Shown in pieces: positions 23,391 through 26,535 of a stretch of 64,000 nucleotides of DNA (positions are counted from its first letter, which is position 1; each line of letters starts with the position of its first letter). The position numbers and the translations under genes were made by a program. A model generated the notes under the pieces. The model saw only the letters and a program-made list of their open reading frames with translations. It did not search any database and was not told where the DNA came from. The DNA lies in the NCBI RefSeq assembly GCF_988243305.1, contig NZ_OZ547136.1. One strand, given 5' to 3'.

Positions 23391-24647
23391 ATGCTCCATC
23401 CGCGAGCCAGAACCATGTTGTTATTATCGCTCCCCGCCGTGGCAATTGGGATTGCGTCCAGTCTTATTCTGATTGTGGTGATGAAAATCGCCTCGGCATT
23501 ACAGAATTTGCTCTGGCAACGACTGCCGGGAACTTTGGGGATAGCCCAGGATTCACCTTTCTGGATCATCGCCATATTAACGCTAACAGGTATTGCGGTG
23601 GGGTTGGTTATCCGTTTCAGCCAGGGGCATGCCGGACCAGACCCCGCCTGTGAACCGCTGATCGGCGCACCGGTTCCGCCCTCTGCGCTACCAGGGCTTA
23701 TCGTAGCATTAATTCTTGGTCTTGCTGGTGGCGTCAGCCTGGGGCCAGAACATCCGATCATGACCGTCAATATCGCCCTTGCGGTTGCCATTGGCGCTCG
23801 TCTGTTACCGCGCGTCAACCGAATGGAGTGGACTATTTTAGCCTCTGCCGGAACCATCGGCGCGCTGTTTGGCACACCTGTTGCGGCGGCGTTGATATTT
23901 TCGCAAACCTTAAATGGCAGTAGTGAAGTTCCGCTATGGGATCGTCTTTTTGCGCCGTTAATGGCGGCAGCAGCTGGTGCACTTACTACCGGATTATTTT
24001 TCCATCCCCATTTTTCACTGCCCATTGCGCATTACGGACAAATGGAAATGACCGATATTCTCAGCGGTGCAATTGTCGCGGCGATTGCCATCGCAGCAGG
24101 GATGGTCGCCGTATGGTGCTTACCACGGTTGCACGCGATGATGCATCAAATGAAAAATCCGGTGCTCGTGCTGGGTATTGGCGGATTTATTCTCGGTATT
24201 CTGGGGGTTATTGGTGGACCAGTTTCGCTGTTTAAAGGGCTGGATGAGATGCAGCAGATGGTGGCAAATCAGGCTTTCAGCACCAGCGATTACTTTTTGC
24301 TGGCGGTGATTAAACTTGCCGCCCTGGTCGTTGCTGCCGCCAGTGGCTTTCGCGGTGGGCGAATCTTCCCGGCAGTGTTTGTCGGGGTGGCATTAGGGTT
24401 GATGCTGCATGAGCACGTTCCCGCCGTTCCAGCGGCAATAACCGTTTCCTGCGCTATTCTCGGCATCGTGCTGGTGGTAACACGCGATGGCTGGTTAAGT
24501 CTTTTTATGGCGGCAGTCGTTGTACCCAATACCACATTGCTACCGCTGCTCTGTATCGTCATGCTTCCGGCATGGCTGTTATTAGCAGGTAAGCCGATGA
24601 TGATGGTCAATCGTCCGAAGCAACAGCCACCCCACGATAACGTTTAG
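23391..24647 (+). CDS. yfeO: Putative ion channel / ClC-like membrane protein YfeO
   Basis: 418 aa polytopic membrane ORF. Confidence 0.8.
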
Positions 24648-24761
24648 CAAAAAATGCTCTCCTTTATGATTTAAGAGTTATGGCGATGATACGGGGCTTT
24701 ACCTCCCCGTAATATTGCGTTAACAGGCCGCTGACGGCTTCGATCGTGAAGGAGAATAACA

Positions 24762-25088
24762 ATGTTCAGGTCACTGTTTCTGGCGGCCGCCCTGATGGCA
24801 TTTACCCCGCTTGCGGCAAACGCAGGTGAAATCACCCTACTGCCATCAATCAAATTACAAATTGGCGATCGCGATCATTACGGCAATTACTGGGACGGTG
24901 GTCACTGGCGCGACCGTGACTACTGGCATCGCAATTATGAATGGCGTAAGAACCGCTGGTGGCGTCATGATAATGGCTACCACCGTGGCTGGGATAAGCG
25001 TAAAGCGTATGAGCGTGGCTATCGTGAAGGCTGGCGCGATCGTGACGATCATCGCGGAAAAGGCCGCGGACATGGACACCGCCATTAA
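24762..25088 (+). CDS. ypeC: Secreted low-complexity protein YpeC (Arg/Asp/Trp/His-rich)
   Basis: 108 aa ORF with a signal peptide, then repeated RDxxW/HR motifs and a C-terminal GHGHRH. Confidence 0.7.
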
Positions 25089-25112
25089 ACACATTCGCCA
25101 ATGGAGCACAAT

Positions 25113-25225
<113 letters not shown>

Positions 25226-25228
25226 CAA

Positions 25229-26476
<1,248 letters not shown>

Positions 26477-26479
26477 CTA

Positions 26480-26501
26480 AAACATAGCCTTTGCTATGTT
26501 T
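26480..26501. promoter_or_regulatory. MntR operator palindrome AAACATAGC-CTTT-GCTATGTTT in the mntH leader
   Basis: Perfect 9-4-9 inverted repeat about 13 bp upstream of the mntH start codon. Confidence 0.75.
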
Positions 26502-26516
26502 CATGCTATGCCAAAC

Positions 26517-26535
26517 GAGAATGATTATCAAATTC
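26517..26535. promoter_or_regulatory. Fur-box-like site GAGAATGATTATCAAATTC upstream of mntH
   Basis: Close match to the 19 bp Fur consensus GATAATGATAATCATTATC, adjacent to the MntR palindrome. Confidence 0.65.

Follow-up and report, generated by a model that had tools for sequence, protein, structure and literature searches.

Envelope or acid stress induces Asr, Spy, CpxP and ZraP, four small proteins that are exported by Sec and work independently of ATP. Asr is a disordered protein rich in His and Lys, ZraP binds Zn, and CpxP is an example of the small periplasmic modulators that form a known theme. Metal-binding His-rich tails or loops are found in ZnuA (a loop), in ZinT (the N-terminus) and in SlyD, HypB and Hpn, while short modules rich in Trp, Tyr, Gly and charged residues make up the choline-binding CW_binding_1 repeats, the glucan-binding YG repeats and the Arg/Trp-rich antimicrobial peptides, which bind sugars, teichoic acids or anionic lipids. 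Here we compare these systems with YpeC. In E. coli, ypeC is among the genes most strongly induced on envelope damage and is a direct target of MarA and SoxS. Its product belongs to the DUF2502 family. The ligand of YpeC, once identified, would fill a gap in the effector lists of the Rcs and the Mar/Sox regulons, both of which matter for antibiotic tolerance. The gene itself is already known; what we add is a sharper description of the family, with its YWDG-WR core, tandem variants, His-rich variable tails and a conserved dual stress promoter.

The closest relative of YpeC in E. coli is YaaX (b0005), which is 49% identical overall and likewise a Pfam DUF2502 member. Like YpeC, YaaX has a signal peptide, the shared N-terminal core (..W..HYEWR) and a His-rich tail, and it is Rcs-regulated and induced on envelope damage. 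The two proteins differ in the tail, which is Pro/His-rich in YaaX (PPPPPRHHKKAPHDHHGGHGPGKHHR) and lacks the YpeC-specific segment of residues 82-96, in the strength of induction (8-12-fold versus 42-60-fold) and in the position of the gene, with yaaX lying between thrC and yaaA and not beside mntH. Two-unit proteins of Yersiniaceae and others, such as Rouxiella WP_045047504 and Serratia WP_259005946, also belong to DUF2502, and the Rouxiella gene occupies the same position as ypeC (ipdC-gpr-[DUF2502]-><-mntH-nupC). However, these proteins contain two copies of the G.YWDG..WR unit at a distance of about 29 residues, whereas only one is present in YpeC, and they have tails rich in Gly/His, Gln or Asp/His.

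With Asr, Spy, CpxP and ZraP, YpeC shares its small size, Sec export and induction by stress. Searches of Pfam, the PDB and Foldseek gave no similarity in sequence or predicted fold to these four or to other characterised periplasmic stress proteins. Their regulators (PhoBR/RstAB, Bae/Cpx and ZraSR) differ from Rcs and Mar/Sox, and none of the four has the Trp/Tyr-rich YWDG core. The tails of YpeC and its family resemble ZnuA, ZinT, SlyD, HypB and Hpn in their His runs mixed with Gly or Asp (GHGHRH, GHGHGHHH, HHDHHH); this is a likeness of composition only, and no homology was found. The CW_binding_1 and YG repeats and the Arg/Trp-rich peptides may be regarded as chemical analogues of the YpeC core. 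Their motif order is different, however, YpeC belongs to neither of the two repeat families in Pfam, and it is an endogenous periplasmic protein, neither a surface anchor nor a toxin. We treat Spy/CpxP/ZraP, Asr and the choline- and glucan-binding families as functional analogies only.

Results

The window, a stretch of 64,000 nucleotides from contig NZ_OZ547136.1 (assembly GCF_988243305.1), carries on its plus strand an ORF at 24762..25088, which starts with ATG and encodes 108 amino acids followed by a TAA stop codon (25086..25088). The translation is identical to the peptide that a sequence-only reading of the same DNA had called YpeC, and both the Pfam match and the E. coli annotation agree with this name. 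The protein matches DUF2502 (PF10697) with 85.4 bits at a cutoff of 27 (E=3.1e-24), its residues 23-106 aligning to positions 1-90 of the 90 profile positions. DUF2502 was the only Pfam family found at E up to 1, and no NCBIfam model matched. By megablast, 5391 of the 5426 complete E. coli genomes carry the stretch with at least 80% of the query covered, annotated as 'ypeC: DUF2502 domain-containing protein YpeC', and the E. coli annotation places yfeO and mntH on either side. The feature is hence an already annotated core gene of E. coli.

The N-terminus shows a positive n-region, a hydrophobic h-region and an AXA site and has no lipobox Cys, as is typical of a Sec/signal peptidase I substrate. 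We read residues 1-21 (24762..24824, +) as the signal peptide, which signal peptidase I is predicted to cut off after A-N-A. A21 is invariant among the YpeC homologues and A19, P16 and L5-L11 are nearly so, which agrees with the earlier proposal of a secreted protein; export to the periplasm via Sec is accordingly predicted from the sequence. The mature protein would have 87 amino acids and about 11 kDa, a pI of about 10, a net charge of +7 and a GRAVY of -2.1, and it consists of 18.4% R, 14.9% G, 11.5% D, 10.3% H, 9.2% W and 8.0% Y. These six residues account for 83.6% of the last 73 positions, compared with 20.6% in four neighbouring proteins, showing that the compositional anomaly is real and well past chance. 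The extreme charged and aromatic make-up that had been noted at first sight was thus confirmed, as was the His-rich tail, with four His among the final 12 residues. Long ORFs also run through this stretch in other frames and on its opposite strand.

In order to define the family, YpeC was searched against sequence collections in two ways. A word-index search returned 278 clusters, all of them DUF2502, while a profile search run exhaustively over 1.84 billion representatives gave 120 clusters (50% identity) at E up to 1e-3. With only 120 clusters in the exhaustive search, DUF2502 is a small family. In an alignment of 106 sequences the signal peptide is followed at once by the signature P-x6-G-x2-D-x2-G-x-YWDG-x2-WR-x4-W. 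All its residues are present in YpeC (P28, G35, D38, G41, Y43, W44, D45, G46, W49, R50 and W55), and each is at least 90% conserved in these sequences. They lie within a core of about residues 28-70 (24843..24971, +), in which Trp, Tyr, Arg, Asp and Gly abound. Across about 20 genera YpeC keeps its start codon, its Shine-Dalgarno sequence and its signal peptide, and a good number of core positions never vary. The G.YWDG..WR unit is doubled in 30 distant members, with about 29 residues between the copies.

The core is followed by a low-complexity basic tail of residues 71-108 (24972..25085, +), in which we distinguish a YpeC-specific conserved segment of residues 82-96 (25005-25049, +) and a Gly/His-rich end of residues 97-108 (25050-25085, +). 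Among 56 YpeC orthologues the segment 82-96 is as well conserved as the core (0.86 and 0.85, respectively). H104 and H106 are nearly invariant in YpeC orthologues. The tails evolve fast, and those of distant DUF2502 proteins share no sequence relationship; they are rich in His/Asp, Pro/His, Gly/His or Gln, or finish with CPPGQAKKGNC. Taking 56 representatives with intact tails, the median His content is 13.5%, with at least 10% in 66% of them and at least 20% in 32%. About one third of the tails is not His-rich; these have much Gln, Gly and Pro or close with CPPGQAKKGNC. The recurrence of His-rich tails suggests that selection has favoured a polycation that can be titrated or can ligate metals. 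The family reaches into the Betaproteobacteria (Jeongeupia, Deefgea, Azonexus), which are not known to have an Rcs system, and the function of the core would therefore not be Rcs-specific.

The structure of YpeC was predicted with AlphaFold2 from two independent alignments, one of 20 and one of 106 sequences, which gave the same picture. Residues from about 30 to 70 reach a pLDDT of 82-90 (84-90 over 31-70) and are predicted to form a short helix (52-58) and a beta-hairpin (59-68). The junction with the signal peptide and the residues from 72 or 75 to 108 stay below 50, and the same low pLDDT marks the tail as a whole. A search for fold analogues in the PDB gave none, the best Foldseek match having E=5.4, and a PDB sequence search gave no match at E up to 10. 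YpeC is probably a small, novel folded module with a disordered tail, so that about half of the protein, and not all of it, would be disordered. The sequence-only reading had proposed a disordered periplasmic protein; according to the models this holds for about residues 72-108, while the core of residues 28-70 or so is predicted to fold.

The same reading had described the protein as almost entirely repeats, and this description did not stand. The motif WRDRD does occur twice. A repeated 5-mer, however, also arises in 4.9% of composition-preserving shuffles of the core. When the N-half (34-70) was aligned with the C-half (71-108), the Smith-Waterman score was 36, compared with 43.5 +/- 7.7 for shuffled C-halves, 86% of which score at least as high as the real one. 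Neither the Smith-Waterman comparison nor the 5-mer shuffles detected internal repeats above composition. Since the half-versus-half score lies below that of the shuffles and a repeated 5-mer turns up in some of them, we conclude that YpeC is compositionally biased and not truly repeat-built; residues 28-70 or so form one conserved, predicted-folded unit. The possibility that a segment of the C-half is a decayed second YWDG unit was also considered and was ruled out, its alignment score not exceeding that of the shuffles.

Upstream of ypeC the marbox GCATTTTTTGCTAAA, a site for MarA/SoxS that reads on the minus strand, lies at 24643..24657, where it overlaps the TAG stop codon of yfeO (24645-24647). 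In E. coli MarA binds upstream of ypeC at this sequence in vivo, as seen by ChIP-seq, and strongly in vitro ('+++'), and ypeC is also a SoxS target by ChIP-exo (PMC5684230). Salmonella SoxS binds the identical site by ChIP-seq (PMC10268841), and the sequence in the window is identical to both the E. coli MarA and the Salmonella SoxS site. A marbox with at most two mismatches was found in 60 of 77 Enterobacteriaceae loci, in most of them 115-120 bp before the ATG, and the site stands out as a conserved block when the upstream regions are aligned. This spacing is kept whatever gene lies upstream: yfeO adjoins ypeC only in Escherichia, while other genera have about 3 kb of ipdC-gpr DNA in its place (PMC5770404). 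The ypeC promoter carries a marbox of the Mar/Sox/Rob type, the binding itself being taken from the published data.

A second conserved element, TAAGA-GTTAT-GGCGA (24672..24686, +), abuts the putative -35 element. It can be read as an RcsB-like half-site or as two inverted arms that match imperfectly around a 5-nt spacer. In the upstream alignment of 20 genera the block TTARGAGTT..SCGAT (24670-24687) is conserved and its TT..GAGT is invariant. The canonical RcsB box is TN(G/A)GAN4TC(T/C)NA (PMC7913699), and no copy with at most one mismatch exists in 24500-24800. Of 73 loci, 10 match a variant of this box with an N5 spacer perfectly, 20 match it with one mismatch and 40, E. coli among them, with two, and a TAAGA/TAGGA half-site is conserved beside the putative -35 element. 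Judged by its sequence and position, the block 24672..24686 may be an RcsB site, and direct control of ypeC by RcsB is plausible; because the canonical box is absent, Rcs control could also be indirect.

The putative promoter itself (24686..24715, +) is of a weak sigma-70 type, with ATGATA (24686-24691) as the -35 and TAATAT (24710-24715) as the -10 element and a predicted transcription start at about 24722. The -10 positions TAAnAT are invariant across 20 genera, and the 18-nt spacer (24692-24709, +) holds a GC-rich dyad, CGGGG..CCCCG, that is conserved in the 20-genus alignment. A sigma-70 consensus scan found no consensus-grade promoter upstream of ypeC, which fits a dependence on activators. 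Two features mark the 5' leader (24725..24754, +): a small hairpin at 24725-24740, which is conserved, and at 24750-24754 the Shine-Dalgarno sequence AGGAG, which in the upstream alignment is part of an invariant AAGGAGA. In 18 genera the hairpin persists, in places with changes on both sides, and has a weak covariation term of -0.64 kcal/mol. RNAalifold support is weak for both small hairpins, and an Rfam scan returned nothing in the leader.

Published expression data place ypeC in the same programmes. Treatment with a LolCDE inhibitor at two doses raised ypeC 42-fold and 60-fold by RNA-seq and yaaX 8-12-fold, in a response that is dominated by annotated Rcs-regulated genes (osmB, bdm, the wca genes, ypfG and yaiY) and in which spy and cpxP are co-induced (PMC5105897). 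In an O157:H7 isolate with a disrupted rcsB, ypeC was 23.7-fold lower (PMC5343319). The list of the RcsB regulon includes yaaX (PMC2731931), which is also induced by colicin M, and a Serratia DUF2502 promoter has been cloned as an Rcs reporter (PMC8470065). In the literature we found no report of a MarA/SoxS effect on the ypeC mRNA level, and the searchable literature, including the locus tags b2390 and STM2407, gave no ypeC mutant phenotype. Taking the transcriptomes and the ChIP data together, we are highly confident that the gene is ypeC and that it is under the Rcs and the Mar/Sox/Rob stress programmes. The regulation evidence points to envelope and antibiotic stress and not to metals.

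On the other side of ypeC lies mntH (25229..26467, -), which is convergent with it across a 140-bp gap. The genes converge and therefore share no transcript. The gap is filled with REP-type palindromic elements (25100..25221, no strand assigned), which appear as sub-threshold matches to the REP-derived Rfam family naRNA4 (25062-25145 and 25170-25221, 48 bits compared with a gathering score of 59.5); a megablast query that includes the REP stretch has a median of three match places per genome. A consensus-mismatch scan detected no Fur, MntR, Zur or NikR operator at the ypeC promoter. The best scores upstream of ypeC, 12/19 for Fur, 11/18 for MntR, 14/23 for Zur and 8/12 for NikR, are at background level. 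As the positive control, the upstream side of mntH gave a perfect MntR palindrome (26480-26501, 18/18) and a Fur-like box (26517-26535, 15/19), both 1.7 kb from the ypeC promoter. We conclude that ypeC is neither co-regulated nor co-transcribed with mntH.

The junction between ypeC and mntH is kept in most Enterobacteriaceae loci, and the arrangement DUF2502-><-Nramp is found in three further Enterobacterales loci, one of them the Rouxiella locus, with DUF2502 proteins of about 35-40% identity; in one of the other two a methyltransferase gene is inserted between the DUF2502 gene and mntH. Several Citrobacter loci lack mntH up to a distance of 4 kb. The paralogue yaaX of E. coli (thrC-yaaX-yaaA) and the Serratia-type genes (pheST-ihfA-DUF2502-btuC) have no Nramp gene beside them. 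In Jeongeupia, Deefgea, Azonexus and others the family occurs in unrelated contexts, with clpB, usp and Na/H exchanger genes seen as neighbours among distant members. The neighbourhoods of 10 non-Escherichia members revealed no recurrent partner beyond the inherited mntH synteny, no consistent metal gene was seen beside DUF2502 at the other loci, and no rcs genes stood beside DUF2502 in any locus examined. The adjacency of ypeC and mntH is best read as inherited synteny and gives no evidence of function. Regarding the metal link that had been drawn from the neighbouring mntH, the adjacency is real and order-wide, but the genes are convergent, REP elements lie between them and ypeC has no metal box. 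As to the metal regulation raised at that time, the consensus scan gave no Fur, MntR, Zur or NikR box, and the reported regulators are Rcs and MarA/SoxS; the link to manganese transport comes down to a gene order that is conserved but convergent. Nucleic-acid binding, which had also been suggested, is unlikely for a periplasmic protein.

Discussion

On balance we lean towards reading YpeC as a stoichiometric binder or shield that acts in the periplasm during envelope stress. The protein is too small for an enzyme and has no catalytic motif, and for these reasons a stoichiometric mode of action is proposed. How it might bind is a more tentative matter, on which we would not insist. Going by composition, the core rich in Trp, Tyr, Arg and Asp could stack on sugar rings and form salt bridges to phosphates or carboxylates, with peptidoglycan, the head groups of LPS or phospholipids, periplasmic glucans and intermediates of colanic acid as candidate ligands. 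The His-rich tail might add a charge that depends on pH or on metals; with the His residues protonated, the charge of YpeC rises from about +7 to about +16. Core and tail together would help to stabilise or shield the envelope while the Rcs and Mar/Sox programmes are on. The His-rich tails and the order-wide mntH junction would suit a role in metal handling equally well.

Such a role would make YpeC a periplasmic metal binder or buffer, whose His/Asp/Gly tail chelates Zn, Ni, Cu or Mn and which may pass Mn or Fe to MntH or spare MntH. His-rich tails with many HD, HG or HH runs are a trait of the family, H104 and H106 are nearly invariant in the orthologues, the DUF2502-><-Nramp junction persists even at about 35-40% identity, and in cusS mutants the expression of yaaX shifts together with that of zraP and the cus genes (PMC10920338). 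However, ypeC and mntH converge on REP elements, the ypeC promoter has no box for Fur, MntR, Zur or NikR, and the regulation reported is all Rcs and Mar/Sox. DUF2502 genes at other loci have no consistent metal neighbours, several Citrobacter loci have no mntH close by, about one third of the tails is not His-rich, and the best-conserved part of YpeC is the His-poor core. We consider a dedicated metal binder rather unlikely on this evidence, although the recurrence of His-rich tails with unrelated sequences across the family keeps the idea alive, as does the conserved junction with mntH. Slightly less probable still is a 'hydrophilin' or periplasmic chaperone that needs no ATP and holds envelope proteins in solution during stress, as is reported for Asr, Spy and CpxP. 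The small, exported, hydrophilic (GRAVY -2.1), basic and half predicted-disordered protein would fit this description, and so would the co-induction of spy and cpxP on Lol inhibition. The part that defines DUF2502 is nevertheless the predicted-folded aromatic core and not the tail, neither sequence nor fold resembles Spy, CpxP, ZraP or any PDB entry, and the literature we found reports no Cpx or Bae regulation of ypeC.

It appears very improbable to us that YpeC is a feedback modulator that adjusts signalling by binding an envelope-stress sensor such as RcsF, IgaA or a porin complex. The theme is known from CpxP, and in an Rcs-type response the induction of ypeC is among the strongest; the family nevertheless extends to the Betaproteobacteria, which are not known to have an Rcs system, and in the loci examined its genes do not sit beside rcs genes. 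A spurious, non-functional low-complexity ORF, which the extreme composition and the long ORFs in the other frames and on the opposite strand could bring to mind, is effectively refuted by the pattern of conservation, with the start codon, Shine-Dalgarno sequence and signal peptide kept and core residues invariant across about 20 genera; the 120 clusters of the exhaustive search and the strongly regulated transcription speak against it as well, and we attach next to no weight to it.

Returning to the periplasmic binder or shield, a bolder version may be sketched, which we regard as improbable. The YWDG-WR core could be an undescribed mini-fold for an envelope polyanion or glycan and, in combination with the His tail, a stress-induced binder that is switched by metal or pH. 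A functional tie to the Nramp transporter, whose neighbour it has remained all through the Enterobacterales, would also be conceivable, for instance through the buffering of periplasmic Mn or Zn while the envelope is leaky.

The tail, to which these ideas assign the switch, is also the part of YpeC that varies in length between species in a slippage-like manner. Units of HRGWDK come and go after residues 74/79, a GGWGRG insertion follows residue 100 and the (G)H runs at the end differ in length; the indels among the orthologues cluster after residues 74/79, 100 and 108.

The marbox of ypeC (24643-24657) overlaps the stop codon of the upstream gene yfeO in Escherichia, while in most other genera a stretch of about 3 kb carrying ipdC and gpr separates yfeO from ypeC. 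The ypeC promoter block is the same in genera with and without the intervening ipdC-gpr, as seen when the window is set against loci L008-L081 of the comparison set. In Escherichia, ipdC-gpr appears to have been lost by a deletion whose end coincides exactly with the ypeC promoter.

Within this promoter, a GC-rich dyad, CGGGG-CTTTACCT-CCCCG (24692-24709), lies in the spacer that separates the putative -35 from the putative -10 element. The dyad is retained in most genera and shows a few two-sided changes, such as AAAGC..GCTTC in Salmonella; a repressor site and a DNA structure are both possibilities. Downstream, the predicted 5' leader contains a small hairpin, AGGCCG-CTGA-CGGCTT (24725-24740), which is conserved between genera, its G-C pairs being exchanged for A-U and G-U, and whose loop carries a 23-nt insertion in Raoultella. 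The RNAalifold support for this hairpin is weak. It may shield the mRNA at its 5' end, or may be the target of a small RNA.

The sites upstream of mntH served as the positive control in this analysis. We found a perfect MntR-type palindrome, AAACATAGC-N4-GCTATGTTT (26480-26501), adjoined by a Fur-box-like site, GAGAATGATTATCAAATTC (26517-26535, matching at 15/19 positions). Together they represent the dual Mn/Fe control that is expected of mntH.

Between ypeC and mntH, which are convergent, the gap is filled with REP-type palindromic elements (25062-25221). All three matches there to the REP-derived Rfam family naRNA4 (48.7, 48.1 and 29.2 bits) stayed below the gathering score of 59.5, and for a megablast query that took in the REP stretch, the median number of places matched in an E. 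coli genome was 3. The junction of the DUF2502 and Nramp genes is breakable, since in one divergent Enterobacterales genome (GCA_017052175.1, locus L091) a methyltransferase gene (Pfam hits to PCMT / Methyltransf_3; L091:4392-5081) is inserted between the two.

A subgroup of the DUF2502 proteins replaces the His-rich tail with a conserved C-terminal CPPGQAKKG(N/R)C, a motif that is covered by no family in Pfam. The members are P0162, P0179, P0186, P0194, P0197, P0203, P0211, P0217 and P0218, with example genes at L082:4001-4375 and L087:4001-4324; both members for which the organism was identified are betaproteobacterial (Jeongeupia and Azonexus). The two Cys residues of the motif could form a disulphide loop.

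Around 24850-25109, the biased codon content of ypeC gives rise to three further long ORFs, two on the minus strand (83 and 84 aa) and one on the plus strand in another frame (119 aa). We rejected them as genes and regard them as mechanical by-products.

Enterobacterial ypeC DNA was also seen in two assemblies labelled as other organisms. The one labelled Rhizobium wenxiniae (L002) has it on a contig of 398 bp, with 100% identity to YpeC of E. coli, and the one labelled Chryseobacterium sp. 18061 (L055) shows the complete yfeO-ypeC-mntH-nupC synteny; both assemblies are most likely contaminated or mislabelled.
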